Source of the DNA: Gemmatimonadaceae bacterium
GTDB lineage: Bacteria > Gemmatimonadota > Gemmatimonadetes > Gemmatimonadales > Gemmatimonadaceae
Length of the DNA stretch: 64,000 nucleotides
Direction: 5' to 3'
NCBI GenBank assembly: GCA_031414435.1
Contig: JANNVN010000123.1
Span: 1,158-65,157, forward strand
Made by a program: the position numbers and the translations under genes. Each line of letters begins with the position of its first letter. Positions within the stretch are counted from its first letter, which is position 1. Below are positions 10,409 to 37,210 of the stretch, one piece after another. The notes beneath the pieces are model-generated. The model made no database searches. It was not told where the DNA came from and worked only from the letters and a program-made list of their open reading frames with translations.

Positions 10409-10872
10409 GTAGCTAACATCGTGGCACGTGGCGCACGATTTGTGTTGTTGCGCCCGCCAGCGTGGCGATGCGGCGGCCATGCTGGCGAATGATGGCCCTG
10501 TCGGCCTAAAGAGAACAGAAGCACGCCTGATCTCGGTCAGCGACAATATCGATGAATTACTGTCGCTGGTCGGTTGGGACAATGGCGTGATAATGACTGA
10601 ACCGGATGCGGCGGTCTCGGCCGTCGTTCCTGCCCATGGCGCGCGCGGATGCGATCCCCACGATTCGGTCCGGCTGCGGGCCGCACCTCGATCGCCACCA
10701 GCCCGGATGCGCACGACCGATTGCGCTTGATCGCCATCCTCTCGGAGGGTCACGCGACGACGCTGCGTGCCAGAACGGCGGCTTGGCGTCCGCCGCCCCA
10801 TGGCGGAAGGGCCAGACGCTCGAGGCGCCACTGCTGTGCTGTGGTGACGAACTCCTCCGCGATATCGCGCGA

Positions 10873-10907
10873 GAATTTGTCGTTCCTAGTAACGTTATAA
10901 GGTTATG
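10873..10907. promoter_or_regulatory. isolated AT-rich patch with 8-bp palindrome TAACGTTA, about 310 nt upstream of the PKS operon; candidate operator or promoter element
   Basis: The sequence gaatttgtcgttcctagTAACGTTAtaaGGTTATg is a sharp AT island in otherwise high-GC non-coding DNA. TAACGTTA (10890-10897) is self-complementary and GTTAT is repeated 3 nt apart. No convincing sigma70 -35/-10 spacing is present. Confidence 0.2.
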
Positions 10908-11215
10908 TGCGGCACAACGGAAACCACGATCTGGTCGATGATGCATGGCGTGACCGATTTCTGCCAGAAGTCTCCAGTCGGCCGTTCGATCGGGAACACC
11001 ACGGATGTCCTGCGGCCCGTCGCTGTAGACCGCAAGGATGTGTCAGGCAATCAGCGCCGTGTGGCCTGTGTCGCCCGGTCGAGGGGCGTGACTGTGGTCC
11101 CAGACGCTCTGCGGGTCGGGAGCCTCGGGCGCCATCGTGGCATCTCGCGCGGGATGGCGCTCCGCGGAAGGGCCATGTCTGAGACGTCTCGTGTGCGTCC
11201 GCGTGAGTTTGCGCC

Positions 11216-14200
11216 ATGAGCACGACGCCCTCGGCGTCGCCGCGCGCGATCGCCATCGTTGGGATGAGCGGGCGATTTCCGGGGGCCCGGTCACTGGAGC
11301 AGTTCTGGCAGAATCTGCGCGACGGTGTGGAGTCCCTCGACACCTTCACCGAGGCTGAACTCGACGCTGCCGGCGTTGACGCGACGACTCGAGCACTCCC
11401 CGGCTGGGTGCCGCGCGGGACGGTGCTTCAGGACGCCGACCACTTCGACGCGGCGTTCTTCGGCTATTCGCCGCGTGAAGCACAGATCATCGATCCGCAG
11501 CAGCGCGTCTTTCTGGAATGCGCGTGGGAAGCGATGGAGCACGCCGGCTACGCGCGCGAGCCGGACGGGGCGATGGTGGCGGTCTACGCCGGCTCGAGCA
11601 TCAACAGCTACGTCTACAGCCAGCTGCTCCCGAACCGGGAGCTGCTGGCGTCCGTCGGCGGCTATCAGGTCATGCTCGGGAACGACAAGGATTTCCTCAC
11701 CACTCGTGCGTCATACAAACTCGATCTGCATGGACCGAGCATGGCCATCCAGACGGCATGCTCGACCTCCCTGGTGGCCGTGTACGTGGCGTGTCAGGCG
11801 CTGGTGCGTCGCGAGTGCGACATGGCGCTGGCCGGTGGTGTGTCAATCACGTTCCCGCAGCGCACCGGGTACCAGTATCAGGAGGGGATGATCTTCTCTC
11901 CGGACGGGAGCTGCCGGCCGTTCGACGCGGATTCGAAAGGAACACGCGCCGGCGCCGGGGCAGGCATCGTTGTCCTGAAGCGCCTCGAGGATGCACTCGC
12001 CGACCGGGATACGATTCACGCAGTGATTCTCGGCTCGGCCATCAACAACGATGGCGCCGGTAAGGCAGGGTACACAGCCCCGAGCATCGATGGCCAGATG
12101 GAAGTGATCGCGACCGCCCAGGCGCTGGCGGGCGTGTCGGCTGAGAGCATCTCGTACGTCGAGGCACATGGCACGGCAACACCACTTGGTGATCCGATTG
12201 AGATTGCGGCCCTGACGCGCGTGTTCCGCGAATCGACCGACGCGCGCGGATTCTGCACGATCGGTTCGCTGAAGGCCAATCTCGGGCATCTCGATGCCGC
12301 CGCCGGCGTGGCGGGGCTAATCAAGACCGTTCTGGCGCTCCAACACCGCGAACTGCCGCGTCAATTGAACTTCCGCGCGCCAAATCCGCAGTTGCAGCTG
12401 GACACGTCGCCATTCCGTGTTGCAACAACGTGCGAGCCGTGGGCTGCCGGTGCAACGCCGCGCCGCGCGGGCGTGAGCTCGTTCGGGATTGGCGGGACCA
12501 ATGCGCACGTGGTGCTCGAAGAAGCGCCGGCTGCGGCGCCGAGCGCCATCGCCCGGTCGCATCACCTCGTGGTCCTCTCGGCCAAGACCGCCGAGGCCCT
12601 CGACGCCGCGACGACGAATCTGGTCGGGTATCTGCGGCAGGATGCCGCGGCATCGCTGGCGGATGTCGCGTACACGTTGCAGGTCGGGCGCCGTCCGTTC
12701 CCGCATCGGCGCAGCGTCGTCGTCTGTGATGCCGCCGAAGCGATCACGGCCCTCAGCGCACCCGATCGCGCACCGGTGACGAGCAACGTGCACGAAGGAG
12801 CGTCGCGACCGGTGGCCTTCCTGTTCAGCGGACAGGGCAGTCAGCACGCGGGGATGTGTGCGGAGCTGTATGCACATGAACCGGCGTTTCGTGCCGCGGT
12901 CGACCGCTGCGCGGACATCCTGCACCCGCACTTCGGTCGCGACATTCGCGAACTGCTGCGCGATGGCACTGATCAGGAACTGAGCGAGACCGCGGTCGCG
13001 CAGCCGCTGCTGTTTGTGACGGGGTACGCGTTGGCCGTTCTCTGGATGTCGTGGGGCGTCCAGCCGAGCGCCATGCTGGGCCACAGCATCGGCGAGTACG
13101 TCGCGGCCCATCTGGCGGGCGTCTTCTCGCTCGAGGATGCCCTGATGCTGGTGTCCGCGCGCGGCCGCCTCATGCAGGAGATGCCTCCAGGCGAAATGCT
13201 CGCCGTGCGCCTCGCAGCAGATGCACTGACGCCTCGCCTGGGCCCCGGCGTTGAAATCGCTGCGATCAACGCTCCTGCGATGTGCAGTGTGTCAGGCACG
13301 AGGGAGGCGATCGCGGCGCTGGCGGCGCAGTTGGAGCAGAGCGGCATCGAGCATCGACCACTGCATACGTCACACGCATTTCACTCGGCGATGATGGAAC
13401 CGGTGCTCGCGCCGTTTCGCGCGCAGGTGGCGCGTGTGTCCCTGTCGGCGCCGCGGATTCCGTACGTGTCGAATGTGACTGGGACCTGGATCCGTCCAGA
13501 GCAGGCGACGTCGCCCGACTACTGGGCGTCACATCTGCGCGGCACAGTGCGATTCGCAGAGGGCGTTGCGACGCTGATCGCTCATCAGTCAGTGCAGCTC
13601 CTCGAGGTCGGTGCGGGGAATGCGCTGGCCTCGCTGACGCGGCTGACGCTCGGCCGCGACGGAGCGTCGCGCGTGACCGCATCGTTGCCGCATCCCCGTG
13701 AAGCGCGACGTGAGCTCGAGACGATGTTGGATGCGGTGGGTCGACTGTGGGTCAGCGGCGTTGCGGTTGATTGGGCGGGTATCAATGCAATGGCGTCGCT
13801 ACGGCGTGTACCACTGCCGACCTACCCGTTCGAGCGCAAGCGTCATTGGGTCGACGCCCCGAAGCCTGCGCCAGACGCCGTCGCGCGCTTGTACCGGCGC
13901 GAGGCGCTGGATGACTGGTTCTACACGCCCACATGGACGCGCGCACCGCTGGCTCGGAATCGACTGCTGCCGCTGGACGGCACGTGGCTCGTATTCGGCC
14001 GGGCGGATGCACTCGAGGCGGCCGTTCTCGAGCGGCTGCGCGCGCGCGGTGCGTCAGTCATCGCCGTCGGCGCAGGGGAGCAATTCACGTCGGGTGACGA
14101 GCGATTCGTGGTGCGCGGTGCGGACCCGCGCGACTACGAATCACTCATCCGCACACTTCGGGACAAGGGGGCTGATCTTCGCGGTGTCATTCATCTCTGG

Positions 14201-15778
14201 AATGTGGGGCCGATCGGGAATGCGAATGCTGCCCGGGATACCTCGCTTCACGCGATCGCCGCACTCGGGCGGGCGCTGCTGATCGAATCACCGGCGGCGT
14301 CGTTGCGACTGGTGGTTGGGACGACCGGCGCGCAGAGCGTGCATGGTGAGCCTGTGCAATACGCGGATCGTGCGCTGTCGACCGGCCCGGTGCTGGTACT
14401 GCCGATGGAGCACGCCGGCGTAGGTGCGAGTACGATCGACCTCGATGGCGCCACGGCCCGCGTTGGCTGGCGTGACGAGGCGGCACGACAGCTCGTCGAA
14501 GAGGCGTCAATTGACGACGCGGACGCGCTGGTTGCGGTCCGGTCCGGCGAACGCTGGGTCCGTCGATTCGTCGGTGGGGCACTCCCGAGAACCGAGACCC
14601 TGGCAGCGACGTTGACGCACCGCGGTGTCTGTCTGGTGACCGGAGGACTTGGCGGTATCGGCGTGACTCTGGCCGAGTGGCTGGCTCGCAATGTGTCGGC
14701 ACGGTTGGTTCTGACCTCTCGGACGGCACTGCCGAACCGTGGCGAGTGGGATGCGTGGCTGGCGGCGCACGACGGGTCGGATCCGACGTCGCAGCGCATC
14801 CGGGACATCGAGCGAATCGAGGCGGCTGGTGGCGAGGTTGTCGTGATCGGTGCGGACATTGCAAGCGTGACGGAAATGCGGAGTGCACTGGCCGCTGTCG
14901 AGGCTGGTTGGGGGCCTGTCACGAGTGTGATTCACGCCGCTGGCATTGCTGGTGACGGGTTGCTGGCGCTTTCGAGTCGCGATCATGCAGAAGAGGTGAT
15001 CAGTGCCAAGGTCGCGGGGTTGGACTGCCTCGTGGCTGTGCTCGGCGATCACGCCATGGAATTTGTGGTGCTGTGCAGCTCGATCAACGTGGTCGGCGGG
15101 GTCGCGGGGACTTACGCATACACGGCTGCCAACGCGTACCTCGACGCCTTCGCGGTGTCGGCGCAGCGGCCGGTGGGATGGCGGACGGTCTCGATTGCGT
15201 GGGATGCCTGGCGGGATGTCGGGATGGCGTCGAAGGTTGTGGTCCCGGATGCCATGCGCGCGGCTCGAGCGGCGTACGTCGCGGCCGGTATTTCACCGGC
15301 CGCTGGTGCGGACGCCTTCGCGCGCTGCCTCGAAAGCGGGTTCGCTCAGCAGGTCGTGTCGCCGTATGACATCGAGACGGCGCTGATCGATCGTCGGCGA
15401 TTACGCTCGGCCGCGCCCACAATCGTCGAGACCCGTCGCGCCGAAGCCCATGCGGCAGAAGTGTCGTCGGAGGGCAGGCCATCGTCTGCACACGTCGCCC
15501 CGGCAGGGGAAGTGGAGGAACGGCTGGCGTCAATCTGGGAGGAGCTCTTGGGCGTTACGCCGGTCGGAGTGCACGACAATTTCTTTGATCTGGGTGGTCA
15601 TTCGCTGCTGGCCACCCGTGTACTGGCGCGGATCGACAGCACCCTGGGCGTGCGCCTGCCGCTGCGAGACGTGTTCAGCGCGCCGACGATCCGGCTGCTT
15701 GGCGGCCTGATCGAGGCGCAGCTGCAGTCGGCGGCTGTTGCTGCGCATGGCGGTGAACGCGAAGAGTTTGAGTTGTGA
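11216..15778 (+). CDS. type I PKS, KS-AT(malonyl-type)-KR-T, with an NRPS-type carrier domain
   Basis: KS motifs: QTACSTS (Cys codon 11759-11761), EAHGTATPLGDPIE, KANLGHLDAAAG. AT motifs: GHSIGE (Ser codon 13085-13087) and HAFHS. Linker PLPTYPFERKRHW. KR motifs: VTGGLGGIG (about 14638-14661), YAYTAANAY, HAAGIAGDG. Carrier: DNFFDLGGHSLLATR (Ser codon 15602-15604). The KS begins at about residue 10, so there is no loading or docking region. C-terminal tail ...GGEREEFEL. Confidence 0.93.
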   Translation: MSTTPSASPRAIAIVGMSGRFPGARSLEQFWQNLRDGVESLDTFTEAELDAAGVDATTRALPGWVPRGTVLQDADHFDAAFFGYSPREAQIIDPQQRVFLECAWEAMEHAGYAREPDGAMVAVYAGSSINSYVYSQLLPNRELLASVGGYQVMLGNDKDFLTTRASYKLDLHGPSMAIQTACSTSLVAVYVACQALVRRECDMALAGGVSITFPQRTGYQYQEGMIFSPDGSCRPFDADSKGTRAGAGAGIVVLKRLEDALADRDTIHAVILGSAINNDGAGKAGYTAPSIDGQMEVIATAQALAGVSAESISYVEAHGTATPLGDPIEIAALTRVFRESTDARGFCTIGSLKANLGHLDAAAGVAGLIKTVLALQHRELPRQLNFRAPNPQLQLDTSPFRVATTCEPWAAGATPRRAGVSSFGIGGTNAHVVLEEAPAAAPSAIARSHHLVVLSAKTAEALDAATTNLVGYLRQDAAASLADVAYTLQVGRRPFPHRRSVVVCDAAEAITALSAPDRAPVTSNVHEGASRPVAFLFSGQGSQHAGMCAELYAHEPAFRAAVDRCADILHPHFGRDIRELLRDGTDQELSETAVAQPLLFVTGYALAVLWMSWGVQPSAMLGHSIGEYVAAHLAGVFSLEDALMLVSARGRLMQEMPPGEMLAVRLAADALTPRLGPGVEIAAINAPAMCSVSGTREAIAALAAQLEQSGIEHRPLHTSHAFHSAMMEPVLAPFRAQVARVSLSAPRIPYVSNVTGTWIRPEQATSPDYWASHLRGTVRFAEGVATLIAHQSVQLLEVGAGNALASLTRLTLGRDGASRVTASLPHPREARRELETMLDAVGRLWVSGVAVDWAGINAMASLRRVPLPTYPFERKRHWVDAPKPAPDAVARLYRREALDDWFYTPTWTRAPLARNRLLPLDGTWLVFGRADALEAAVLERLRARGASVIAVGAGEQFTSGDERFVVRGADPRDYESLIRTLRDKGADLRGVIHLWNVGPIGNANAARDTSLHAIAALGRALLIESPAASLRLVVGTTGAQSVHGEPVQYADRALSTGPVLVLPMEHAGVGASTIDLDGATARVGWRDEAARQLVEEASIDDADALVAVRSGERWVRRFVGGALPRTETLAATLTHRGVCLVTGGLGGIGVTLAEWLARNVSARLVLTSRTALPNRGEWDAWLAAHDGSDPTSQRIRDIERIEAAGGEVVVIGADIASVTEMRSALAAVEAGWGPVTSVIHAAGIAGDGLLALSSRDHAEEVISAKVAGLDCLVAVLGDHAMEFVVLCSSINVVGGVAGTYAYTAANAYLDAFAVSAQRPVGWRTVSIAWDAWRDVGMASKVVVPDAMRAARAAYVAAGISPAAGADAFARCLESGFAQQVVSPYDIETALIDRRRLRSAAPTIVETRRAEAHAAEVSSEGRPSSAHVAPAGEVEERLASIWEELLGVTPVGVHDNFFDLGGHSLLATRVLARIDSTLGVRLPLRDVFSAPTIRLLGGLIEAQLQSAAVAAHGGEREEFEL

Positions 15779-15945
15779 CACAGCAGACCACAGGCGAACT
15801 CCTCGACCAATTGCGCGCACTCGATGTCCGAGTGCGCGTGGAAGACGGACGGCTCCGCATCAACGCGCCCAAGGGGAGTCTGACGCCGGCGCTCGAAGCC
15901 GCGCTGGTCGCGCACCGGGAAGCTCTGGTCGCGGCGCTCGAAGAC
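15775..15945 (+). other. TubC-type N-terminal (beta-hairpin) docking domain of the NRPS
   Basis: GELLDQLRALDVRVRVEDGRLRINAPKGSLTPALEAALVAHREALVAALE fits the pattern L..L...GV.LW.EG..LR..AP.G.LT.EL...L..HK.E....L that I recall for TubC_N-type docking domains. Confidence 0.7.
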
Positions 15946-18900
15946 CAGGGAATCGGCGCCGGTCGTCCCGCGCTGGCGCCCGTGCTGCGGTCCGGTCCCC
16001 TGCGGCTGTCGTTTCTGCAGGAGCGCTTGTGGGTGATCCAGCAGCTGCAGCCGGATTCCACGGCATATAACCTCGTGATGTTGGCGCAGGAACAGGACGG
16101 CGTCGAACTGCCGCTCCTGCAGGCGGCGATCCGCGGTGTCGTCGAGCGTCACGAGATCCTTCGTGCTCGGTTTGCATCCGAGGGCGGCGCGCCGCACGTG
16201 CGCATCACGGTGGCAGAAGAGACGCGGGTCGTGTTCCGTGATCTGCGGGCGCTGGCACGCGACGAACAGCAGGCGATCATCAGCCAGGCTGTTCCCGTCG
16301 CGACACGCGAACCGTTCGATCTGGCCGCGGAGGCGGCGGTCCGGTTCACGATTCTGCAGACCGGTGACCGGCGATGCGCGTTGCTGATCGCTGCGCACCA
16401 TATCGCCCTCGACTCGTGGTCGCTCCCGGTGCTGCTCCGCGATCTGCTGATCGAGTATGAGACGCAGCAACGCGGCGCTGGCGACGCGCGGCCACCCTTG
16501 ACGCTGCAGTACGTGGACTATGCCCACTGGCAGCGTGAGACCATGGTGGCGGCCGGCGCGCAAGCGCGCCTCAAGTACTGGACAGACCGCCTTGCCGCCT
16601 TGCCGCAGCTGAGCACTTTCCCCACCGACCGGCCGCGTGCCATCGACGCGGTCGGCACGGGAGCGGTGTACGATTTCGCGTGGTCGCCGACGCTGTATGC
16701 CGGGGTTCGTGCATTGGCGCGTGAGCTCGACGCCACCGTGTACATGGTGCTATTGGCGGCGGTGGCCGTTCTGCTGACGAGATGCACGGCGCAGTCGGAT
16801 GTGGCGATCGGCAGTCCACTCGGGACACGGGACCTGTCGGAGCTGGAAGGGATGCTCGGGCCAATCCTGAATCCGCTCGTGACGCGCTTCGACGTGAGTG
16901 ACGATCCGACCTTTGCCGGAGTGGTTCAACGCGCCCGGGATGGCTTGCTGGATGGGCACTCACATCAGGACGTCCCATTTGAAGCGCTGGTGCAAGCGCT
17001 CAACCCCGCACGTTCGCTCGGGCATTCACCACTGTTCCAGGTCGCGGTCGTACTGCACAATGCTCCTGGCACGGGCGAAACACCGTCGATCCACAGCGGT
17101 GGTGCGATCTATGATCTGACCGTCTTCGCCGTGGAGCGCGCAGGCGCGCTGTACTGTTCGTTCGAGTATCGCTCAGATCTGTATGACGAGGCAACCATCG
17201 CGCGCCTCAGCACGCAACTTCAAACCGTGCTGAGTGCTGCAGTGCGCGACCCACAGCTAACGGTCTCGGGCATTCCGCTGCTCCCGGAGTCCGACGCAGC
17301 GCTGCTGATCGAGGCGACGAATCCCGCACCGATTGCCCTCGACCGGACGACGGTCGTGGAGCAGTTCACCCGGACCGTCGCCGCCAACGCTGCTCGCGTT
17401 GCTGTAGTGGCGTCGGACGGCACGTTCACCTACGCGGAAATCGACCGGCGCGCCTCGATCGTTGCTGAGGTCTTGCGCGCGGCAGGTGCCGGTCGCGGTT
17501 CGTTCGTCGCCCTCGCCACAGATCGTTCCAGCGCGACGGTGGTCGGTGCGCTCGGCATCCTCAAGTCGGGCGCCGCGTACGTGCCGGTCGACGTCTCGTA
17601 TCCGGCGGATCGTGTGGCGTTCATGCTCAGCGACAGTGGCGCGCGACATGTCGTGGCGACGCGGGAGAGTCTGCGGTCACTGCCCGGCCTCGGGTCGGGC
17701 GCGACACTGGTCCTGGTGGACGAAGTGGTCGATGCACCACCGTCCGCGGCGGCGGCACCGATGCCCCCCGTGCGCGAGGACGACATCGCCTACCTGATGT
17801 ACACCTCCGGTTCAACCGGAACGCCGAAGGGTGTGCTCGTCCCGCATGGGGCCGTCAGCAGCTTTCTGGGTGCGATGCGCTTACGCCCGGGGATATCGGT
17901 CGATGACGCGGTGCTGTGCGTCACATCGATGTCGTTTGATATCTCGGTCTTCGAAGTGTTCCTGCCACTGGTGACCGGTGCACGGACGATCATCGCATCG
18001 CGCGAGGAGGCCAGCGATGGACACCGAATGGCGCACCTGATTGGATCCGCCAGAGCCACAATTGTCCAGTCCACGCCGTCCGGCTGGCGACTGCTGATGC
18101 AGGCGAACTGGTCTGGCGGGCCGGAGATCTCGGCGATCGCCGGCGGCGAGCCGATGCCACAGGATCTGACCAACTGGCTCGGGGAGCGGGTCCGGTGGGT
18201 CTGGAACGGGTATGGTCCCACGGAAGCGACGGTGTACTCGTCGATGGCGCTCCTTACCGGCGCTGACATGATCACCATCGGCACGCCCGCCGCGAACACG
18301 CGAATTTATGTCCTCGATACGTCCAACCACGTCTTGCCGATCGGAGTGCCAGGCGAAATTTGCATCGGCGGCGATGGGGTCACACGCGGATACCACAACC
18401 GACCGGAACTGACGGCTGACCGATTCGTTGCCGACCCGTTCGTTTCCGGCGCCAGGATGTATCGCACCGGCGACGTCGGGCGTTGGCGTGCCGATGGCCG
18501 CCTCGAGCACCTCGGCCGGATCGATGGGCAGGTGAAGGTGCGCGGCTATCGGATCGAGACCGGTGAGATCGAGACGGCGCTTTCACAGCACCCGGGTGTG
18601 CGAACCGCAGTCGTCGGTGTCCGCAATGCCTCAGCGGACGATCCGCGACTGGTGGCCTGGGTGCAGCTCGAGCCGGAGGGCGATTGCACCACGAGCGAAT
18701 TGCGGCGGTACCTCCGCCAGACGTTGCCGGAGTTCATGATTCCATCGATGCTTATCATGGTCGAGTCGTTTCCATTGACGCCGAACGCCAAGATTGACAA
18801 GCGGGCACTACCTGATCCGTTTCTCAACGGGAGCGCCGCATCGCCGGAGTACATGGCGCCGACGACCCCGACCGAACGACTGATCGCGGCCGTCTGGTCG

Positions 18901-19104
18901 CGCCTGCTTGGCGTGGAGCGTATCGGCACCACGGACGCCTTCTTCGAACTGGGTGGGCATTCGTTGCTGGCCATGCGCGCGGCACTGGAGATTTCTGAGG
19001 CGACTGGTGTGCGGCTCGAGCCGCGCCTTCTCTTTTTCCGCACTCTGGATCAATTGGCCGTGGCCTGTGACACGCAGCTATCCGCCGGTTCGCGTCGCGC
19101 ATGA
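15775..19104 (+). CDS. NRPS module, Ndock(TubC-type)-C-A-PCP
   Basis: C domain: LSFLQERLWV and HHIALDS (16396-16416). A-domain cores: FTYAEIDRR, LKSGAAYVPVD, YTSGSTGTPKG, FDIS, NGYGPTEA, GEICIGGDGVTRGY, YRTGD, GRIDGQVKVRGYRIE, LPEFMIPS, NAKIDK. PCP: FFELGGHSLLA (Ser codon 18961-18963). The protein ends about 46 aa after that Ser, so no TE, R or E domain fits. Its GTG start overlaps the upstream stop (GTGA). Confidence 0.93.
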   Translation: MTQQTTGELLDQLRALDVRVRVEDGRLRINAPKGSLTPALEAALVAHREALVAALEDQGIGAGRPALAPVLRSGPLRLSFLQERLWVIQQLQPDSTAYNLVMLAQEQDGVELPLLQAAIRGVVERHEILRARFASEGGAPHVRITVAEETRVVFRDLRALARDEQQAIISQAVPVATREPFDLAAEAAVRFTILQTGDRRCALLIAAHHIALDSWSLPVLLRDLLIEYETQQRGAGDARPPLTLQYVDYAHWQRETMVAAGAQARLKYWTDRLAALPQLSTFPTDRPRAIDAVGTGAVYDFAWSPTLYAGVRALARELDATVYMVLLAAVAVLLTRCTAQSDVAIGSPLGTRDLSELEGMLGPILNPLVTRFDVSDDPTFAGVVQRARDGLLDGHSHQDVPFEALVQALNPARSLGHSPLFQVAVVLHNAPGTGETPSIHSGGAIYDLTVFAVERAGALYCSFEYRSDLYDEATIARLSTQLQTVLSAAVRDPQLTVSGIPLLPESDAALLIEATNPAPIALDRTTVVEQFTRTVAANAARVAVVASDGTFTYAEIDRRASIVAEVLRAAGAGRGSFVALATDRSSATVVGALGILKSGAAYVPVDVSYPADRVAFMLSDSGARHVVATRESLRSLPGLGSGATLVLVDEVVDAPPSAAAAPMPPVREDDIAYLMYTSGSTGTPKGVLVPHGAVSSFLGAMRLRPGISVDDAVLCVTSMSFDISVFEVFLPLVTGARTIIASREEASDGHRMAHLIGSARATIVQSTPSGWRLLMQANWSGGPEISAIAGGEPMPQDLTNWLGERVRWVWNGYGPTEATVYSSMALLTGADMITIGTPAANTRIYVLDTSNHVLPIGVPGEICIGGDGVTRGYHNRPELTADRFVADPFVSGARMYRTGDVGRWRADGRLEHLGRIDGQVKVRGYRIETGEIETALSQHPGVRTAVVGVRNASADDPRLVAWVQLEPEGDCTTSELRRYLRQTLPEFMIPSMLIMVESFPLTPNAKIDKRALPDPFLNGSAASPEYMAPTTPTERLIAAVWSRLLGVERIGTTDAFFELGGHSLLAMRAALEISEATGVRLEPRLLFFRTLDQLAVACDTQLSAGSRRA

Positions 19105-19886
19105 ATCTCCAGTTCTTCGGTTCCTCCAGCCGACAGTTGTTCGGCGCGTATCGCCCCCCCGCCAATGGCCTGCCATCGCGTGGTGCGGCGTTGCTCTGTC
19201 CTCCCTGGGGACAGGAGTACCTCGTCTCGCACCGGATCTTCCGCCGACTGGCCGTACGGCTGAGCGAGAGTGGATATCACGTCCTGCGCTTTGACTACTA
19301 CGGCACGGGGGATTCGGCCGGCGAGCGCGAGGAAGGCGACCTTCAGTCGTGGCTGGGTGACGCGCTGGTGGCGCTCGAGGAGCTCCGCGACATCTCGGGG
19401 TGTCAGACGGTGGCCACCTTTGGCATTCGGCTCGGGGCGATCGTCGCCTGGCAGCTCGCTTGTACGCGGAGCGACGTGCACAGCACGGTGTTGTGGGATC
19501 CAGTCGTGGATGGCTCGGAGTACGTGAGAGAGCTGGTCAAGGCGCAGGCTGAGGTGGATCGCTGGCTGCTGACCCCCGTGCGACATGAGTCGTCTCCTGA
19601 CCGGGCGCAGGACCTGCTTGGATTTCCGCTGACGGTGGCCATGCGCCGAAGCATTGAAGCCGTCACGCCGGACATCTTCCTGCACCGCACGGCAGCGCAT
19701 GTGAAACTGTTCTACTCAGACGCCCTGCCCGGTCAGGAGAAGAGTCACGACGCATTTCACGCAGCTGGGACGCCGTTTCATGCGGAGACAATCCGTGGTC
19801 AGACGCCGTGGCGCGAGGATGAGTCGATTGGCGCCGGCGGACTGCCGGTGCTGGTGCTCGAACGCATGGTCGAGATCCTTCGATGA
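19101..19886 (+). CDS. alpha/beta-hydrolase-fold protein with Arg at the nucleophile position (probable pseudoenzyme); resembles 'exosortase A system-associated hydrolase 2'
   Basis: PPWGQEYLVSHRIFRRLAVRLSESGYHVLRFDYYGTGDSAG is an oxyanion/beta3-type region. The nucleophile elbow reads TVATFGIRLGAIVA, i.e. G-I-R-L-G, with Arg110 at codon 19428-19430. There is no obvious C-terminal catalytic His motif. ATGA overlaps at both ends. Confidence 0.65.
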   Translation: MNLQFFGSSSRQLFGAYRPPANGLPSRGAALLCPPWGQEYLVSHRIFRRLAVRLSESGYHVLRFDYYGTGDSAGEREEGDLQSWLGDALVALEELRDISGCQTVATFGIRLGAIVAWQLACTRSDVHSTVLWDPVVDGSEYVRELVKAQAEVDRWLLTPVRHESSPDRAQDLLGFPLTVAMRRSIEAVTPDIFLHRTAAHVKLFYSDALPGQEKSHDAFHAAGTPFHAETIRGQTPWREDESIGAGGLPVLVLERMVEILR

Positions 19887-20833
19887 ACTCAGGCATCCGC
19901 GAGCGGGTGGTGCGATTCGGTGCGGGAAACGGTCTGGCTGGCATTCTGTCGACCAGCCGTGACGCTCCCCCCGGTTTGCCGTTCGTGGTAATCGTGAATG
20001 CGGGCATCATCCATCGGGTCGGTCCCAATCGGCTCTATGTCGATGTCGCGCGCGCGGTCGCGGCGCTCGGGTATCCGGTCCTGCGATTCGACCTCGCGGG
20101 CCTCGGTGACTCCGAAGCGACCCGTACCGAAGCATCGTTACTTGAATCGGCGTTGCTCGACGTGAACACCGCGTTCGACTACCTGGCCAGCACGCATGGC
20201 GCGACTGCGTTCCTCGCATTTGGCCTGTGCTCCGGTGCGAACTACGCCCTGCTGACCGCGTTCAGGGAGCCGAGGGTCATCGGCGTTCTGGTCATCGACC
20301 CGACGGTGACACGTACGCGGCGGAGCGTGATGGTGCATTACGCACGTCGATTGAGAAACCTGTCGACGCTGCGCTCGATGCTGACGCTGAGCCACCCCAA
20401 GTTTCTGCAGCGAATCGAACGCCTGCGCAGTCTGGCGGTCGCGCGCGCGGCGCAGGGACAGAGTGGGCAAAACGCCGAGCCACCTCGCGAGAAAGTCACG
20501 GCCGAGGACAGCCGCCGTTCGCTCGAACAGCTGATCGCGCGGGGTACGCAGCTGATGTTCGTGTTCACGGGTGGCGTCAACCACGTGTACAACTACCGGA
20601 ACCAGCTGTACGACCTGCTGCCGGGGTTCGACTTTCGCGGCCGGCTGCGTCTGGACTACATGCCCGACACAGATCACACCGTGAGCGATGGGCGCGGACG
20701 CCGTCAGTTGATCGATTCGGTGAGCGAGTGGCTGGCGCAGTCGTTTCCCCGCACGGGTGCAACAGACACAGCGGTGTCCGCGATCGTCGAACCACCGCGA
20801 GCGGTGGTGGGTCGTGTGGGAGACTCGCCGTGA
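19883..20833 (+). CDS. alpha/beta-hydrolase-fold protein with Cys nucleophile (GLCSG); resembles 'exosortase A system-associated hydrolase 1'
   Basis: VVIVNAGIIHRVGPNRLYVDVARAVAALGYPVLRFDLAGLGDSE. The elbow AFLAFGLCSGANYAL is G-L-C-S-G, with Cys116 at codon 20228-20230. A candidate catalytic His lies in LDYMPDTDHTVSD near the C-terminus. Confidence 0.65.
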   Translation: MNSGIRERVVRFGAGNGLAGILSTSRDAPPGLPFVVIVNAGIIHRVGPNRLYVDVARAVAALGYPVLRFDLAGLGDSEATRTEASLLESALLDVNTAFDYLASTHGATAFLAFGLCSGANYALLTAFREPRVIGVLVIDPTVTRTRRSVMVHYARRLRNLSTLRSMLTLSHPKFLQRIERLRSLAVARAAQGQSGQNAEPPREKVTAEDSRRSLEQLIARGTQLMFVFTGGVNHVYNYRNQLYDLLPGFDFRGRLRLDYMPDTDHTVSDGRGRRQLIDSVSEWLAQSFPRTGATDTAVSAIVEPPRAVVGRVGDSP

Positions 20834-21606
20834 GGGCCGCTGGTGCGGTGCCGACATTGCTGCGTCTGGGCGACAGGAAGGCGCCGCGTCGGCGCCTGTT
20901 CTGCATGCCGTATGCGGGTGGCGGCGTTGCGCCGTTTCGCCTCTGGCATCGCACGCTGCCGGCCGACATCGAGGTGCTGGCGGCGCAGTTGCCGGGGCGT
21001 GAGTCGCGGCTGCGCGAGGCTCCGCTGCCATCGATTGCCGCGATGGTCGATGCGGTCCTCCCGGCGGTGGAGGCCTCGTCTGACCTGCCCTACGCCATTT
21101 TCGGGCACAGCATGGGTGCGCTGATCGCGTTCGAGCTCGCGGCGGCACTCGAGCTGCGCGACATCCGTCCGCCATCGCACCTCTTCGTTTCTGCGCGTCG
21201 GTCGCCCGAAGAACTGGACACGCGGACACCGATTCACGCGCTGCCGGAGCGCGAATTCCTGGATGAGATGCAGGCCCGCTATGGCGCCGTGCCGGATGCC
21301 ATCAGGAGCGAGCGCGAGCTGCTCGATCTGCTGCTACCGGTGGTACGCGCTGACATCTGCGCTGTGGAGACGTACGCGATGTCACCGGAGACCAGAGTCT
21401 GCTGTCCCGTCGACGTGTATGGTGGTGTCGATGACACACATCCCACACCGGCACAGTTGCCCCGCTGGGAGCGTGTGGCCGCGCAACCGGTTCGGGTGCG
21501 CATGTTCCCAGGGGACCACTTCTTCGTGAACACACAGCGTGATGCTGTGACAGCCGACATCGCGGCGCGATGGACCTGCGATGTTGCCGAGGAAGCACGC
21601 GCATGA
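20830..21606 (+). CDS. type II thioesterase (GrsT/RifR-like editing TE)
   Basis: GTG 20830 overlaps the upstream stop (GTGA). Motifs: RRLFCMPYAGGG, the GHSMG elbow (Ser codon 21109-21111), and C-terminal PGDHFF. The 20227 start of the long ORF lies inside the previous gene in another frame. Confidence 0.88.
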   Translation: MRAAGAVPTLLRLGDRKAPRRRLFCMPYAGGGVAPFRLWHRTLPADIEVLAAQLPGRESRLREAPLPSIAAMVDAVLPAVEASSDLPYAIFGHSMGALIAFELAAALELRDIRPPSHLFVSARRSPEELDTRTPIHALPEREFLDEMQARYGAVPDAIRSERELLDLLLPVVRADICAVETYAMSPETRVCCPVDVYGGVDDTHPTPAQLPRWERVAAQPVRVRMFPGDHFFVNTQRDAVTADIAARWTCDVAEEARA

Positions 21607-24600
21607 TCGGTGGTGGGTCGTCTCCGGAACGTCCGATGCCGATTGCGATCGTCGGCATCGGCTGCCGCTTTCCGGGGGGGATCGTCGACACGGAGACGTT
21701 CTGGCGGGTGCTGGCCGACGGTGTCGATGCGATCTCGGAGATCCCGGCGGACCGCTTTGACGTGGCGAAGTACTACGACGAGCGGCCCGGCACGCGCGGC
21801 CGCATCATGACGAAGTGGGGCGGCTTCGTGAATCAGCGTCTCGAGGAATTCGATGCCGCATTCTTCGGCATTTCTCGCTCGTACGCCGAACGGCTCGATC
21901 CGCAACAGCGCCTGCTGCTGGAGACGAGCTGGGAGGCGATGGAAGATGCGGGCATTGATATCGTCGGACTGCGCGGCACCCCGACGGGCGTCTTCGTGGG
22001 GCAGTGGGTGAGCGACTTCGAGCATCGGCTGTTTGCCGACCCCAGTGGCATCGACTTCCAGATGGCGATGGGCAGCGGCCGCTACGCCGCGGCCGGACGG
22101 CTGTCGTATGCCTTCGGGTTTCGGGGGCCGAGTCTGTCCATCGACGCCGCGTGTTCATCCGGGCTGGCATCAGTGCATCTCGCCGTGCGCAGCCTGCGCA
22201 GCGGTGACAGCGAGATCGCGCTGGCTGGTGGGGTGAACATGATTCTGCAGCCGCACATCCATCTGGCATACTCGTACAGCCGGATGATGGCGGCGGATGG
22301 CCGGTGTCGATTTGGTGATGCGCGCGGCAGTGGCTACGTGCGTTCGGAAGGTGCGGGGATCGTGGTGCTCAAGCCACTCGCGGCGGCCGTCGCGGCGGGC
22401 GATCGCATCTACGCGGTGATCCGCGGGAGTGCGGTCAACAGCGACGGCGACAGCAGCGGCTCGATGGGTCGACCGAGTCGCCTGGGCCAGGAAGAGCTGC
22501 TGCGCAGCGCGTTGCGTGATGGCAACGTGCTCGCATCACAACTCGACTACGTCGAGGCACATGGGACAGGTACGCGTGCAGGTGATCCGGTGGAGCTGGC
22601 TGCGCTGGGAGCGGTGCTATCAGAGGGGCGCGCGGCGAACGCACCACGGGTGTGGGTTGGTTCGGTGAAGACCAACATCGGCCACACGGAAGCGGCGGCA
22701 GGAGTCGCCGGTCTGATCAAGACGGCATTGATGCTCGAGCGCGGCCAGATTCCGGCCAGTCTGCACTTCGACGAACCGAATCGCGAGGTGGCGTGGCAGG
22801 ACATTCCTCTCGCGATCCCAACCGGCATGATGGTGTGGCCGCGGCGGGACGGCATGCGCGTTGCGGGGGTGAGCTCGTATGGCATCGGCGGAACCAACGC
22901 GCATGTGGTACTCGAGTCGGCACCCGCAGTTGTCGGGAATTCCGCTGCCCACCATCGGGTGGCGAACCCCATCGCGCTGCTGCCACTGTCGGCGCGCGGG
23001 GTGCCCGCGCTGCGCGCGATGGCCGCGCGTTATGCGGACCTGCTGTCGAACACCGACGGGCCATTACTCCACGACGTCTGCTGGAGTGCGGCGACGCGAC
23101 GGTCAGCGCTGACCCATCGTGCGGCGTTCGTCGCGACGGACCGTGAATCGATGGTGAGCGCCCTGCGTGCGTTCGCCGCCGGCGATGCCGCCACTGCCGA
23201 TGGTGTGGTGCACGAGCCGCGTCGTCGTCGGATTGCATTCGTGGTGCCGGGGCAAGGCGCGCAGTGGGTCGGGATGGCGCGGGAGCTTGCCGCAGCCGCT
23301 CCGGTGTTCCGTGATACGTTGGCTGCCTGTGATGCGGCCGCGCGTACGCATACCGGATGGTCGATTGTCGAGCAGCTGCATCTGGATGTCGAGGCGGCGG
23401 GCTACCGCGGTGATCGGATCGACGTCATCCAACCGACGCTGGTTGCGATCGCCATCGCCTATGCGGCCTGGCTCAGGTCACTCGGCATCGAACCGGATGC
23501 CGTCGTCGGGCACAGCCTCGGCGAGGTCGGTGCCGCGGCCATTTCGGGCGCACTGGATGTTCAGACGGCTATGCGCATCATCGTCCAGCGCAGCGCACTG
23601 ATGCAGCGGACGAGCGGCCATGGTGCAATGGCGGTCGTGGAGCTCCCGAGCCAGGATGTGACTCAGCGACTGCGCGGCCGCGAAGCCGAGCTGTGTCTGG
23701 CCGTGAGCAACAGCCCGCGCTCGAGTGTGATATCGGGTACACCCGCAGCGGTCGGCGCGATGCTCGCCGAACTGCAAGTTGAGGGCGTCTTCTGCAGACT
23801 GGTGAAGGTCGACGTTGCGTCGCACAGCCCGCAGATGAATCCGCTCGCGACGGAGCTGGTCGACGCGCTCGCGGACATCCGGCCTTCGGTGGGCAGCGTG
23901 CCGATCTACTCCACCGTACAGGCTGCACCGCTTGAAGGGACGTCGTTCGATGCCGCGTACTGGGGCCGGAACCTCACGCACCCGGTGCTGTTCGGTGACA
24001 CCGTTGAGCGAATGCTGTCCGACGGGATCGACGCGTTCATTGAATTGGGTCCGCATCGGGTGCTGTCGCAGGCGGTGGAGCAGGTGGCAGCGTCCTCCGC
24101 TCACCACGCGCTTGCGGTGGCGTGTGGCCGGCGCGAGTCGCCTGAGCTGGCGGCGGCGTTTGGTGTGATTGCGGCGCTCTGGACGCACGGCGTCGCCATC
24201 GGGTGGGCGCGCGTGCTGGGGTGGCGCGGCTGTTCCGTGGCGCTGCCGCTGTATCCGTGGCAACGGGAGCGGTTCTGGGCCGAGGCCGCAGAGCTCACGG
24301 AGACCGGCACCGTCGGGGCGCGCCGGACGCGCTTGTCCCCGCAGGCGCAGCGCGCGCTGCATGTCCTGGAGTGGCACCCCCTGCCGGCTGCCGTTGCGCC
24401 TGTCGGCGACCGGAGCGCGCGCTGGCTGGTGGTCGCGAGTACGCAGGCCGATGGGGAGCCTGTCGCGGCTGCCCTGCGCGCGCGAGGTCAGAGTGCCACG
24501 GTCGTGCACTCCATGCAGGCGGCCGGGGAACTGGTCCGCGAGTGGCCGGTCTCGAATGTGCCGACTGGTGTCGTCGTCTTGCCACCGGACGAAGTGCCCG

Positions 24601-26207
24601 CAGCGTATTCGCCAGTGGCGGCTTTGAATGCCCTGCGTGCTTCACTGGGTACGCCGGCGTCGGCAGCGGTGCCGCGCGTCTGGTGGACTACGGTGGGTGC
24701 TCATGTCGTGGCAGGCCATGCGTCGTCACTCCACTGCGAACAGGGTGGCGCACTCTGGGGCGCGGCACGGGTGTTGGCGGAGGAGTATCCGCAGTCGTGG
24801 GGAGGACTGATCGATCTCGATCCGGCGTCCGACCCGGAGGGTCGGGCCGCGCAGATCGCCATGCACCTCGTCCTTGGCGGAGACGAAGATCAGGTCGCGT
24901 TCCGTGGCGAGTTGCGCTATGCGCTTCGTCTGGTTCCAGCGTCGGCGCACGTGTCGGCGCCATTCCCTTGGCGTGCCGATGCGGCCTACCTCCTCACGGG
25001 CGCCTTCGGCGGCGTCTCGCTGCAGCTGGCGCACGGCATGGTGCGGGACGGCGTCCGACGCCTGGTGCTGCTCGGCCGCACCGCGATGCCACCGCGTCAC
25101 ACGTGGGCGGCCCTCGATCCGGAATCACGTGATGGCCGGCGCGCGGCGGCAGTCCGAGCACTGGAGCACGCGGGCGCCGCGGTGCATCTCCTTCACGCAG
25201 ACGTTGCGGACGAACGGGCCGTACGTGCGGCGATCGATGCGTACAACGCCGAAGGGTGGCCCTCGATCGATGGTGTCATTCACAATGCGGCGGTACTCGC
25301 CAACCGCCTGTCGCATGAAATGACGCCCGGGGAATTCGAGGAAGTTCTGGCGCCGAAGCTGACCGGGGCGGTGGTGCTCGATCGGGTGTTTCCGAGTCTG
25401 AGCCTGTTCGTGCTCTCGTCGTCGATGAGTGCCTACTGGGCCCCTCCGGGCATGGCGAACTACGCAGCTGCCAACGCCGGCGTCGATGCCCTGGCGGCGG
25501 CGCGACGTGCGCGCGGCCAGCACGCGATCAGTGTGCAGTGGTGTCCGTGGGCCGATGTCGGAATGCACGATGCCGCGAACATGGAGCACAACTTCGGTGA
25601 GATGGCGAAGCTGGGTGTGCGTTCGATCACCGGTGACGAAGGGGTTGGGTTCTTCAATAACCTGATCTCGCGTCCCGACAGCGTCATCAGTGTCTTGCCG
25701 ATCACCTGGTCGACCTACCGGAGTGCGAGGCGCGGGCGTGACCTTCCGCTCTTTCGCGCCATCGCCGACGCCGCACCGCAACCGGATGATGCCGCAACCG
25801 GCAGCGGCGCGCTGCGTCAGCTCCTCGAGGCGAGTACGGTCGATCGCAAGCCGCTGCTCGACTCGCTGGTGCGGAGTGTCGTGGCGGGGGTGTTGCGTCG
25901 GCCTGCAGCACAGCTGGATGAGCGGCAGCCCTTCGGTGCGATGGGCGTCGACTCACTGCTCGCTCTCGAGATCCGGAACCGGCTGGAGAGCGCACTCGAG
26001 CGACCGTTGACTGCGACGCTGGCGTGGAACTTCCCGACGGTACAGTCGCTCGTCGCACACCTCGATGCGCTGCTGGTACCACGAGTCGTTGCAAATGCGA
26101 TCACGCCACCGGTCGAACCGTCGGGCGACCTCGCGCCGTCCGATTTCGCCGGGATTCTGGCGCTGACGGATTCGGATGCGCTGCTCGCGCTGCGGCGCAG
26201 GCGGTAG
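21603..26207 (+). CDS. type I PKS, KS-AT(branched-extender signature)-KR-ACP; no N-terminal docking region
   Basis: ATG 21603 overlaps the TE stop (ATGA). KS: DAACSSG (Cys codon 22152-22154), EAHGTGTRAGDPVE, KTNIGHTEAAAG. AT: RIDVIQP...GHSLGE (Ser codon 23514-23516)...VDVASHS. Linker LPLYPWQRERFW. No HxxxGxxxxP motif, so no DH. KR: LLTGAFGGVS, ANYAAANA, and no LDD motif (HNAAVLANR). ACP: GAMGVDSLLA (Ser codon 25953-25955). Tail ...LTDSDALLALRRRR. Confidence 0.92.
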   Translation: MIGGGSSPERPMPIAIVGIGCRFPGGIVDTETFWRVLADGVDAISEIPADRFDVAKYYDERPGTRGRIMTKWGGFVNQRLEEFDAAFFGISRSYAERLDPQQRLLLETSWEAMEDAGIDIVGLRGTPTGVFVGQWVSDFEHRLFADPSGIDFQMAMGSGRYAAAGRLSYAFGFRGPSLSIDAACSSGLASVHLAVRSLRSGDSEIALAGGVNMILQPHIHLAYSYSRMMAADGRCRFGDARGSGYVRSEGAGIVVLKPLAAAVAAGDRIYAVIRGSAVNSDGDSSGSMGRPSRLGQEELLRSALRDGNVLASQLDYVEAHGTGTRAGDPVELAALGAVLSEGRAANAPRVWVGSVKTNIGHTEAAAGVAGLIKTALMLERGQIPASLHFDEPNREVAWQDIPLAIPTGMMVWPRRDGMRVAGVSSYGIGGTNAHVVLESAPAVVGNSAAHHRVANPIALLPLSARGVPALRAMAARYADLLSNTDGPLLHDVCWSAATRRSALTHRAAFVATDRESMVSALRAFAAGDAATADGVVHEPRRRRIAFVVPGQGAQWVGMARELAAAAPVFRDTLAACDAAARTHTGWSIVEQLHLDVEAAGYRGDRIDVIQPTLVAIAIAYAAWLRSLGIEPDAVVGHSLGEVGAAAISGALDVQTAMRIIVQRSALMQRTSGHGAMAVVELPSQDVTQRLRGREAELCLAVSNSPRSSVISGTPAAVGAMLAELQVEGVFCRLVKVDVASHSPQMNPLATELVDALADIRPSVGSVPIYSTVQAAPLEGTSFDAAYWGRNLTHPVLFGDTVERMLSDGIDAFIELGPHRVLSQAVEQVAASSAHHALAVACGRRESPELAAAFGVIAALWTHGVAIGWARVLGWRGCSVALPLYPWQRERFWAEAAELTETGTVGARRTRLSPQAQRALHVLEWHPLPAAVAPVGDRSARWLVVASTQADGEPVAAALRARGQSATVVHSMQAAGELVREWPVSNVPTGVVVLPPDEVPAAYSPVAALNALRASLGTPASAAVPRVWWTTVGAHVVAGHASSLHCEQGGALWGAARVLAEEYPQSWGGLIDLDPASDPEGRAAQIAMHLVLGGDEDQVAFRGELRYALRLVPASAHVSAPFPWRADAAYLLTGAFGGVSLQLAHGMVRDGVRRLVLLGRTAMPPRHTWAALDPESRDGRRAAAVRALEHAGAAVHLLHADVADERAVRAAIDAYNAEGWPSIDGVIHNAAVLANRLSHEMTPGEFEEVLAPKLTGAVVLDRVFPSLSLFVLSSSMSAYWAPPGMANYAAANAGVDALAAARRARGQHAISVQWCPWADVGMHDAANMEHNFGEMAKLGVRSITGDEGVGFFNNLISRPDSVISVLPITWSTYRSARRGRDLPLFRAIADAAPQPDDAATGSGALRQLLEASTVDRKPLLDSLVRSVVAGVLRRPAAQLDERQPFGAMGVDSLLALEIRNRLESALERPLTATLAWNFPTVQSLVAHLDALLVPRVVANAITPPVEPSGDLAPSDFAGILALTDSDALLALRRRR

Positions 26208-26213
26208 CGCGCA

Positions 26214-35700: not shown

Positions 35701-37210
35701 GATCATGCAGACCCTGCGAGAGCTTGGTGCATTCGCACGGAAAGGAGAGTCGCACACTCTCGACACGATTCTCGATGCCACCGGTATCCTGGCGTCGCAC
35801 CGCCAGCTCGTCTCACGCTGGCTGCAGCATCTGGTGAATGACGGCGCACTGCGACGGGACGGCGATGTGTTCTTTGCGCGCGAGGCGCGTGCGCGCACGC
35901 CGATGGCGGACCTGTGGGCCGAAGCGGAGCAGCGGTTTCACGACAATCGCGAGATGCTCGCGTACGTGAAGAACTGTGCCTCGCGCCTGCCTGCGATCGT
36001 CACCGGGCGCGAAAGTGCGCTCGAATCGTTGTTCCCGGAGGGATCGTTCGAGCTGGCGACCGCCCTGTACGAGCAGTCGGCCACGATGCGATACATCAAC
36101 GGCCTCGCGGCGGCCGGTCTCGAGGCCGTCGCGCGCACCCTTCCCGCCGGCCGGTCGCTGCGCGTCCTGGAAATCGGTGCCGGGACTGGGGGAACGACTT
36201 CTTCGCTGCTCCGCGTCCTGCCCGTCGACCGCTCGGACTATCTGTTCACCGACGTGAGTGACGCGTTTCTCGATCGCGCGCGAACCCGATTCGCCGAGTA
36301 TTCCAACGTCCGCTACGGCCGATTCGATCTGGATGTCGACGTCGAGTCTCAGGGGTATGTCGCCGGCCAGTTTGATGTGATCGTGTCGGCCAACTGCGTT
36401 CACGCCTCTCGTGACCTACGCTCGGTGCTCGCGCGTCTGCGAGACTTGCTGGCTCCGGGCGGCCTGCTGATGCTGATCGAATCGACGGAGCACTTCGACT
36501 TCTTCGAAATCACGACCGGACTGATCGAGGGATGGCAGGCATTCGCCGATGACCTGCGCACCGACAATCCACTCTTGCCACCGGACACGTGGACCGCCGC
36601 CATGCGGGTGGCCGGTTTTGACTGCGCCGAGGCTTGGCCCGCCCGCGGCTCGACAGCCGAGGCGTTGGGGCAGCATGTCATCGTCGCACGTGCGCCTGGC
36701 GCAGTGAGCGTCGCCGTCCGGCCGCCGCAGTCATCGATTGCGGGACATGCCGCGCGTGAAGCACCGGCACTGCCGCCCGTCACGCACGACTGGACGACCA
36801 GGCTGATAGCCGAGTTGCCGGCTGAGCGACACGGTCTGCTTTGCGAGGGAGTGCGTGGCGAAGTCATGCGGATTCTGCGCCTTGATCCGGCGTCGCCCCC
36901 GGCGCGGCACGACCGGCTGATGGAGCTCGGAATGGACTCGCTGATGTCCGTGCAGCTGCGAAACGCTCTGGCGACGATGCTCGAACTGGACCGCCCACTT
37001 CCAGCGACGCTGATCTTCGACTATCCGACGATAGATGCGATCTCGGCATTCCTGCTCGAGCGGAGCGATCTGCCGACGGTGACGACGGCCGAGGTGGCTG
37101 AGCCCCGTGCTCGCAGCGAGGAGCCTGCGCCGATCACCGCCAGTACCATCGCCGCGATGAGTGATGAGGAAATCACCGCCGCGCTGCTGGCCCGGGAGGG
37201 TGGCGCGTGA
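32786..37210 (+). CDS. type I PKS, Ndock-KS-AT(malonyl-type)-cMT-ACP (no KR, DH or ER)
   Basis: N-terminal [20 protein letters not shown]: DTACSSS (Cys 33407-33409). AT: GHSFGE (Ser 34769-34771), HAFHS. SAM motif I: [14 protein letters not shown] (about 36166-36195), plus [12 protein letters not shown]...[15 protein letters not shown]: LGMDSLMS (Ser 36938-36940). There is no Rossmann TGGxGxxG between the AT and the ACP. Tail [17 protein letters not shown]. Confidence 0.92.

Follow-up and report, generated by a model that had tools for sequence, protein, structure and literature searches.

How does a modular assembly line that carries no releasing domain let go of its product? The question is raised by a hybrid polyketide synthase/nonribosomal peptide synthetase (PKS/NRPS) cluster of a Gemmatimonadaceae bacterium (contig JANNVN010000123.1), which we analysed within a stretch of 64,000 nucleotides (nt), hereafter the window, whose numbering gives all coordinates below. 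Chain release decides an assembly line's final product, and the known solutions are a thioesterase (TE) domain in cis, a reductase (R) domain, terminal condensation (C) domains, type II thioesterases (TEIIs) and trans-acting cyclases of the penicillin-binding protein (PBP) type. The terminal NRPS module of the window (15775..19104, on the plus strand like the rest of the cluster) is built from a TubC_N docking region followed by C, adenylation (A) and peptidyl carrier protein (PCP) domains, as read from Pfam, code extraction and motifs, with the PCP serine lying in GGHS at residue 1060; Pfam detected in it no TE, R or terminal C domain. Directly behind it lie two open reading frames (ORFs) encoding α/β-hydrolase-fold proteins, ORF1 (19101..19886; 261 amino acids (aa), isoelectric point (pI) 5.7) and ORF2 (19883..20833; 316 aa, pI 10.2). 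From their sequences and those of their relatives, we think it probable that the two proteins form a two-subunit off-loading module that replaces the TE in a line ending in a glycine-loaded PCP, and we hold each of the rival explanations weighed below to be less likely.

The three genes are tightly joined. The NRPS stop and the ORF1 start share an ATGA overlap, as do the ORF1 stop and the ORF2 start, and we count the translational coupling that these overlaps predict in favour of a two-subunit off-loading unit. A first-pass annotation of this DNA, made from its letters alone, had carried the ATGA overlaps one gene further; the two junctions just described bear it out, but ORF2 meets the next gene through GTGA, with a GTG start at 20830. 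That gene (20830..21606) does encode the separate classical TEII that the annotation had recognized (PF00975, E 1e-44; GHSMG and GDH motifs).

What kind of proteins are they? AlphaFold2 gave confident α/β-hydrolase folds for both (pLDDT 86.8 for ORF1 and 84.2 for ORF2), and Foldseek returned generic esterases and lipases only (7qjm, PET46 8b4u, TTL lipase, feruloyl esterases, monoglyceride lipase), LuxD and DcsB ranking low among the matches. Profile-to-PDB alignment laid GiRLGa of ORF1 and GLCsGA of ORF2 onto the GLSMGG nucleophile elbow of PET46/MHETase-type esterases, and His265 of ORF2 (tDHt) onto the catalytic DH of these templates. At the elbow position ORF1 thus reads F-G-I-R-L-G-A, with Arg110 (codon CGG, 19428..19430) where a nucleophile would stand, and ORF2 reads F-G-L-C-S-G-A, with Cys116 (codon TGC, 20228..20230) as the predicted nucleophile and His265 (20675..20677), the last residue of D-T-D-H at 262-265, as the predicted catalytic His. 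The best candidate for the acid of the triad is Asp139 (20297..20299), which follows strand beta-6. In ORF1 the C-terminal half found no match to the esterase templates, the catalytic His is missing, and Cys-Pro replaces the oxyanion His-Gly of the templates. Aligned profile to profile, the two ORFs are paralogues over their first ~150 residues, Arg110 pairing with Cys116 and Asp133 with Asp139. The closest solved structures (8b4u, 9pjb, 7qjm; PET46, MHETase MHT043-5 and feruloyl-esterase types) share the HR...VLRFD.RG.GDS block and the elbow position with the pair, but they are ordinary Ser-Asp-His esterases at 15-22% identity, and their cap and C-terminal halves differ.

These unusual elbows are strongly conserved. 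Arg110 and Cys116 were each invariant in 121 of 121 homologues, far beyond chance. In a wider census of ~90 more divergent pairs (93 proteins like ORF2, here called H1-like, and 86 like ORF1, here called H2-like), Cys116 and His265 were present in all 93 H1-like proteins, and the position of Asp139 held Asp in 88, Asn in 4 and Glu in 1; Asp244, found in 60 of 93, is on conservation the poorer candidate for the triad acid. Arg110 was retained in 81 of the 86 H2-like proteins, the exceptions being a second Hydrogenophaga pair (four loci), which has Gly there, and the Shinella fusion, which has Ser. The canonical set of a serine α/β-hydrolase (G-x-S-x-G with an acid and a His) is found in neither protein, since ORF1 has G-I-R-L-G and no His and ORF2 has G-L-C-S-G with His265. 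Nor did the homologue alignments contain an alternative conserved Ser-His set in either protein, so that a hidden ordinary Ser/His/Asp triad, the outcome the first-pass annotation had named as fatal to its reading, did not emerge. Its ORF coordinates, its Arg110 and Cys116 codons and the DTDH motif of ORF2 were correct throughout, and conservation and profile alignment agree in supporting its view of ORF1 as a predicted Arg-elbow pseudoenzyme without a catalytic His and of ORF2 as a predicted Cys-His enzyme.

The exceptions to the Arg elbow deserve a separate word. The second Hydrogenophaga pair (L011, L016, L019 and L037; minus strand, ~11-16 kb) is divergent and adjoins a second NRPS (A-CP-C-CP, CP denoting a carrier protein domain), and its H2 elbow reads G-M-G-L-G, with Gly replacing Arg. 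In Shinella zoogloeoides (L086, 8131-9903) and Rhizobium sp. T136 (L089, ~8125-9900), the H2 half carries G-H-S-I-G, a canonical Ser elbow, or G-Q-G-I-G. Across the wider superfamily, then, the Arg is not universal, and in some lineages the H2 half may be active.

To which family does the pair belong? The best NCBIfam match of ORF1 was TIGR03101 (hydr2_PEP; 89.7 bits, E 2.1e-25, residues 5-149 only), and that of ORF2 was TIGR03100 (hydr1_PEP; 87.0 bits, E 1.3e-24, full-length). The resemblance to exosortase-A-associated hydrolases 2 and 1 that the first-pass annotation had suggested is therefore real and runs in the same order as the genes, but membership is not: the curated cutoffs are 202.75 bits for TIGR03101 and 168.45 bits for TIGR03100, and both scores are about half of these. 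Relatives, including distant ones and single-chain fusions, reached 99-114 bits for TIGR03101 and 77-134 bits for TIGR03100, all those tested falling below the cutoffs. Because the scores lie so far below the curated values, ORF1 and ORF2 are best placed by profile as a sister family of the exosortase-A-associated hydrolases and not as members. TIGRFAM describes hydr1 and hydr2 as standing beside an adenylate-forming ligase and a carrier protein; they too are a pair of diverged α/β-hydrolases of unknown function, reported always to co-occur, and among the relatives of the pair L082 does belong to a genuine XrtA/PEP-CTERM locus. The neighbourhood of the pair in the window matches this description, with an A domain and a PCP immediately upstream of the ATGA-overlapping pair. 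Here, however, they are parts of a C-A(Gly)-PCP module of a PKS/NRPS line instead of a stand-alone ligase and acyl carrier protein (ACP), and the window has no XrtA-type genes. Pfam yielded only generic Hydrolase_4 and Abhydrolase models for the two ORFs, with no match of either to the PF00975 thioesterase model at E <= 0.1. Several relatives are labelled 'dienelactone hydrolase' by JGI; the Cys-His-Asp dienelactone hydrolase model PF01738 did not match ORF2 and was sub-threshold or faint in some relatives.

We then asked in what company such pairs occur. A scan of species-representative genomes returned at least 484 loci encoding ORF2 relatives, of which 80 were kept for analysis; their hosts belong to the Gemmatimonadota, the Beta-, Alpha- and Gammaproteobacteria, the Myxococcota, the Planctomycetota and other groups. 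The closest relatives of ORF2 (55-65% identity) are nearly all from metagenome-assembled genomes of Gemmatimonadaceae or Gemmatimonadales, and the H1-like profile found 3,380 representatives (clustered at 50% identity) at E <= 1e-30 in a library of 1.84 billion proteins. An H2-like gene lies directly 5' of the H1-like gene on the same strand in 66 of the 80 loci, and several others are adjacent but divergent. Fewer than 400 nt separate H2 from the end of an upstream carrier-protein domain in 60 of 79 loci, too short a gap to fit a TE, R or terminal C domain in cis, and the architecture census of the 80 loci found no cis TE anywhere in the lines that the pair ends. These lines are diverse, comprising C-A-CP-C-A-CP, A-CP-C-A-CP and PKS-NRPS hybrids by domain census. 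The commonest layout, in ~20 loci, is A-CP / KS-AT-KR-CP / C-A-CP / H2 / H1, which Pfam confirmed in Hydrogenophaga borbori. Nothing carrier-bearing follows the pair in ~70 of the 80 loci, where the pair is terminal. A TEII occurs only in nine close Gemmatimonadota-type loci (L001-L009) and in L025, and is absent from ~70 of the 80, in keeping with the earlier view that the pair is not the editing TE. Neighbour clustering, limited by crude gene calling in high-GC DNA, found nothing conserved beyond the A-CP, PKS, NRPS, H2 and H1 genes. Such a context is what one would expect if the pair off-loads a line that has no cis TE, as the annotation had proposed.

What varies little is the amino acid that the last module appears to load. 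The ten specificity-code positions were mapped by hand from core motifs and read off the alignment. On this basis, 47 of 50 loci have a glycine-type code in the A domain immediately upstream of H2, glycine-type meaning the textbook glycine code DILQLGLIWK or a sequence that departs from it at one to three positions. The window reads DIFQIGGVYK, which is glycine-like, and close relatives read DILQIGGVYK or DILQIGAVWK. The terminal A domain of L091 is likewise of glycine type, and glycine codes are also found in the loading A domains that can be seen in L026 and L036. The SerRS-like amino acid-[carrier protein] ligases of Mocibob et al. (2010) reportedly prefer glycine or alanine; if this holds, the Azospirillum fusion described below, which adjoins an amino acid-[ACP] ligase, would hint at the same residue.

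Natural fusions arrange the same parts on single chains. In L059 an H2 with the elbow S-M-R-L-G is fused behind an NRPS PCP (C-A-PCP-H2). Four single-chain H2-H1 fusions (P0249, P0264, P0297 and P0323) have G-L-R-L/V-G in the first half and G-x-C-S/T-G plus the His in the second; three contigs of separate runs carry P0249 immediately behind KS-AT-KR-ACP / TubC_N-C-A-PCP, which is the window's own context, and the terminal A domain there has a glycine code. Further H2-H1 fusions are encoded by Azospirillum lipoferum 4B, adjoining an ACP and an amino acid-[ACP] ligase; by B. gladioli BSR3, within an exopolysaccharide (EPS) cluster; by C. metallidurans CH34, just downstream of a gene for a Wzc-like kinase; by Rhizobium sp. 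T136; and by Shinella zoogloeoides, in an EPS cluster with further genes for an ACP and an adenylate-forming enzyme. Taken together, the fusions imply the physical order PCP-H2-H1. They also favour the heterodimer that the first-pass annotation had envisaged, and the opposite charges of ORF1 and ORF2 would fit such a complex.

Other joined forms were seen or set aside. In L072 (2818-10005), H2 follows a C domain with no A-PCP between (A-CP-KS-AT-...-C-H2), an odd terminal architecture. P0367 (1046 aa) joins H1 to a Wzx/MurJ-like flippase and an unassigned C-terminal region, and P0296 (659 aa; L090, 4319-6298) joins H1 to ~350 aa without a family match. Apparent H2-H1 fusions in L036 and L066 proved to be joined tblastn hits over genes in different frames, and an H1-TEII fusion, P0079, was not used as evidence, its contig having synthetase genes split by frameshifts.

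How might the two proteins work? In the mechanism we propose, Cys116 and His265 of ORF2, probably with Asp139, would take the (acyl/peptidyl)-glycyl chain off the phosphopantetheine thioester of the terminal PCP and hold it as an acyl-S-Cys intermediate, from which ORF2 would pass it to an acceptor, either water or some other nucleophile, which a thioester intermediate makes plausible. ORF1 would be a paralogue in which Arg110 has taken the place of the nucleophile and Cys-Pro that of the oxyanion His-Gly, and which has also lost the catalytic His while keeping the strongly conserved pocket in which Arg110 sits. It may serve as an adaptor bridging PCP and ORF2, as a ligand binder, or as both. 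Such a unit would share with type I and type II thioesterases (PF00975) the superfold and the place directly after the last carrier, where H2 is fused in L059; what sets it apart is that neither ORF matches the family, that the elbow offers a Cys or no nucleophile at all, that two subunits make up the unit, and that the true TEII is encoded separately. Like the SurE family of PBP-type enzymes (reviewed in PMC11735501), it would be a stand-alone release system for NRPS lines without a cis TE, but SurE enzymes have an unrelated fold, a single protein and a Ser nucleophile.

What surrounds the pair in the window complicates this picture. The first gene of the conserved cassette (11216..15778) encodes a PKS module with the Pfam layout KS-AT-KR-ACP, the same as in Hydrogenophaga L016 and in the commonest form of the cassette. 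Just upstream of this gene, L001, L003-L005, L007 and L009 have an intact A-PCP loading gene. In the window, tblastn found only fragments of it (10673..11018, plus strand): ~33 aa at 51% identity and ~39-56 aa at E 1e-5, one of them a YGTTETT-like piece of an adenylation domain. The loading module here seems to have been deleted or to have decayed. The position that the loading gene occupies in relatives is taken in the window by a gene (7676-10408) for a 910-aa protein with a C-terminal phosphoesterase domain (phospholipase C-like, PF04185). Behind the TEII gene follow six more cis-AT PKS modules (21570..58016, plus strand, by Pfam): KS-AT-KR-ACP, KS-AT-DH-ER-KR-ACP, KS-AT-cMT-ACP, KS-AT-DH-cMT-ER-KR-ACP, KS-AT-DH-cMT-KR-ACP and KS-AT-DH-ER-KR-ACP. 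This line is highly reducing and has three C-methyltransferase (cMT) domains; its first KS is almost without an N-terminal docking region, and Pfam found neither a TE nor a loading module in it. The long PKS may feed the module at 11216, continue from the Gly-PCP or make a second chain. After its last gene comes an EamA-like transporter (57995..58930, plus strand; a weak Pfam EamA match, below cutoff), a possible exporter, and an EamA gene also lies downstream of the pair in L016. Outside the cluster, the minus strand encodes a MacB-type ABC permease with an HlyD-family adaptor upstream (2398-6150) and a 7TMR-DISM GGDEF diguanylate cyclase at the far end (62535-63995).

This layout, with the pair of the window's subclade lying between an NRPS and a second PKS line whose first KS almost lacks N-terminal docking and whose last ACP has no TE, is an argument for a carrier-to-carrier shuttle, in which ORF2 would hand the X-Gly chain on the NRPS PCP over to the six-module PKS, at one of its carriers or KS domains, or would link what the two lines make. 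The Cys nucleophile points the same way: SyrC and CmaE, to which the first-pass annotation had likened the pair, share the α/β-hydrolase fold, an elbow Cys and a catalytic His (Cys116 and His265 here), and action on carrier thioesters is what we infer for ORF2. They are, however, single proteins that shuttle between two carriers, whereas ORF2 has an apparently obligate dead partner and usually no second carrier to serve, most loci being without one downstream; the strong link is to the upstream Gly-PCP, and we consider a shuttle improbable. The same Cys could instead promote attack, intramolecular or iterative, by an amine or hydroxyl that the chain itself bears, much as PhaC or an oligomerizing TE does. 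The commonest cassette, with glycine-coded loading and terminal A domains around KS-AT-KR, would leave a free amine and a β-hydroxyl on a Gly-C2(OH)-Gly product for such a cyclase or oligomerase to act on, and one fusion gave a very weak PhaC-type match. A cyclase would be expected to track chemistry, yet the chemistry upstream of the pair varies widely between loci, and there is no significant similarity to polyhydroxyalkanoate (PHA) synthases or cyclizing TEs, so that this reading is more improbable still. Least probable of all is that ORF1 and ORF2 are accessory, editing or tailoring hydrolases, with release left to the TEII or an unlinked enzyme. That the TEII adjoins the pair in the window and that the nearest solved relatives are ordinary esterases would suit it, but most pair-bearing loci have no TEII and no other release domain is present, the PCP-H2 and H2-H1 fusions place the pair in the TE position, and a dead subunit conserved for so long is hard to explain as part of an editing esterase.

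The rival we take most seriously, although it too is unlikely, would have the pair acylate an envelope acceptor (polysaccharide, lipid-linked sugar or other) with the acyl-glycyl group held on the carrier, making the pair the PKS/NRPS-fed equivalent of the ligase-ACP-hydrolase 1-hydrolase 2 cassette found in XrtA/PEP-CTERM loci; this rival is compatible with off-loading and specifies the acceptor. In L082, a complete XrtA/PEP-CTERM EPS set (13533-19325) follows the PKS-NRPS-H2-H1 cassette at a distance of ~2.7 kb, two sugar-nucleotide genes lying between, with export protein, chain-length determinant, tyrosine kinase, outer-membrane protein and ATPase all above curated cutoffs (TIGR03027, 03007, 03018, 03016 and 03015). 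Variovorax paradoxus has the order NRPS-PPTase-H2-H1-Wza-Wzc, and in L090 C-A-PCP-H2-H1 sits inside a GT4/Wzx/deacetylase/sulfotransferase cluster. A gene of the Wzx/MOP transporter family directly follows H1 in six loci (L026, L035, L061, L062, L065 and L066, at ~10.3-12.8 kb), and the H1-flippase fusion P0367 also speaks for this rival. Fused H2-H1 proteins occur in EPS clusters of Burkholderia, Cupriavidus and Shinella, and B. cenocepacia Bcam1334, annotated as TIGR03100, is likewise in an EPS cluster (PMC3584217). Nevertheless, only 13 of the 80 loci have any polysaccharide-type gene within 10 kb, the 64 kb of the window have none, and inspection found no signal peptide or membrane segment in either protein. 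XrtA-locus proteins had no match in the window, and the pepcterm ATPase occurred in only 1 of the 80 loci; the EPS/XrtA proteins of Variovorax and L082, used as queries, had next to no matches in the 80 loci or the window, and the polysaccharide linkage is therefore not general. [quoted passage not shown] (2011), as cited in PMC4897644, and an acyl-glycine product for such systems is a reasonable thought and no more.

Returning to a TE-replacing off-loading module as the preferred explanation, several points weigh against it. Its basis is comparative and predictive throughout. The loading A-PCP of the window is degraded, and the cluster may not function as drawn; with a TEII and six PKS modules downstream, the pair may not be the sole or last release step here. 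Five of the 86 H2-like proteins are without the Arg. Finally, H2-H1 fusions occur in polysaccharide clusters with no carrier-protein gene seen adjacent, and because of these the ancestral substrate may not have been carrier-bound.

What would the finding mean? A search of the literature on TIGR03100/03101, exosortase-ACP-hydrolase loci, trans-acting Cys release enzymes, heterodimeric TEs with a pseudoenzyme and Gemmatimonadota biosynthetic gene clusters found no study of these proteins or of the two TIGR families, and cis TEs and PBP-type trans TEs are the only enzymes treated in a 2024 review of NRPS chain release (PMC11735501). One further extension, speculative and on our estimate unlikely, though we rate it above the rivals, is that H2/H1 is a glycyl-thioester-specific transferase that moves carrier-bound (acyl/peptidyl)-glycine to an envelope acceptor other than water, for instance a glycan or other polymer or a lipid-linked sugar; the dead subunit with its Arg would hold the PCP or this acceptor. 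If true, this would be a new class of NRPS/PKS chain termination, and it would give a function to the ligase-ACP-hydrolase 1-hydrolase 2 cassettes of XrtA/PEP-CTERM systems and to the amino acid-[ACP] ligase loci. The simple five-gene cassette is present in several cultured strains, among them Hydrogenophaga borbori LA-38, H. intermedia S1, Rhizobacter sp. Root1238, Piscinibacter aquaticus KACC 15278, Chelatococcus reniformis and Labilithrix luteola, and experiments are therefore feasible.

Judged by gene content, the same two-protein unit recurs across many bacterial phyla. Trans-acting chain release by a hydrolase fold is of a known kind; a Cys enzyme working with a conserved pseudoenzyme would add a new termination logic to it. 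This matters for genome mining, where such clusters presently appear to be TE-less, and for pathway engineering. Through its glycine link and its XrtA/PEP-CTERM and amino acid-[ACP] ligase contexts, the unit offers a testable route to the function of hydrolase 1 and hydrolase 2.

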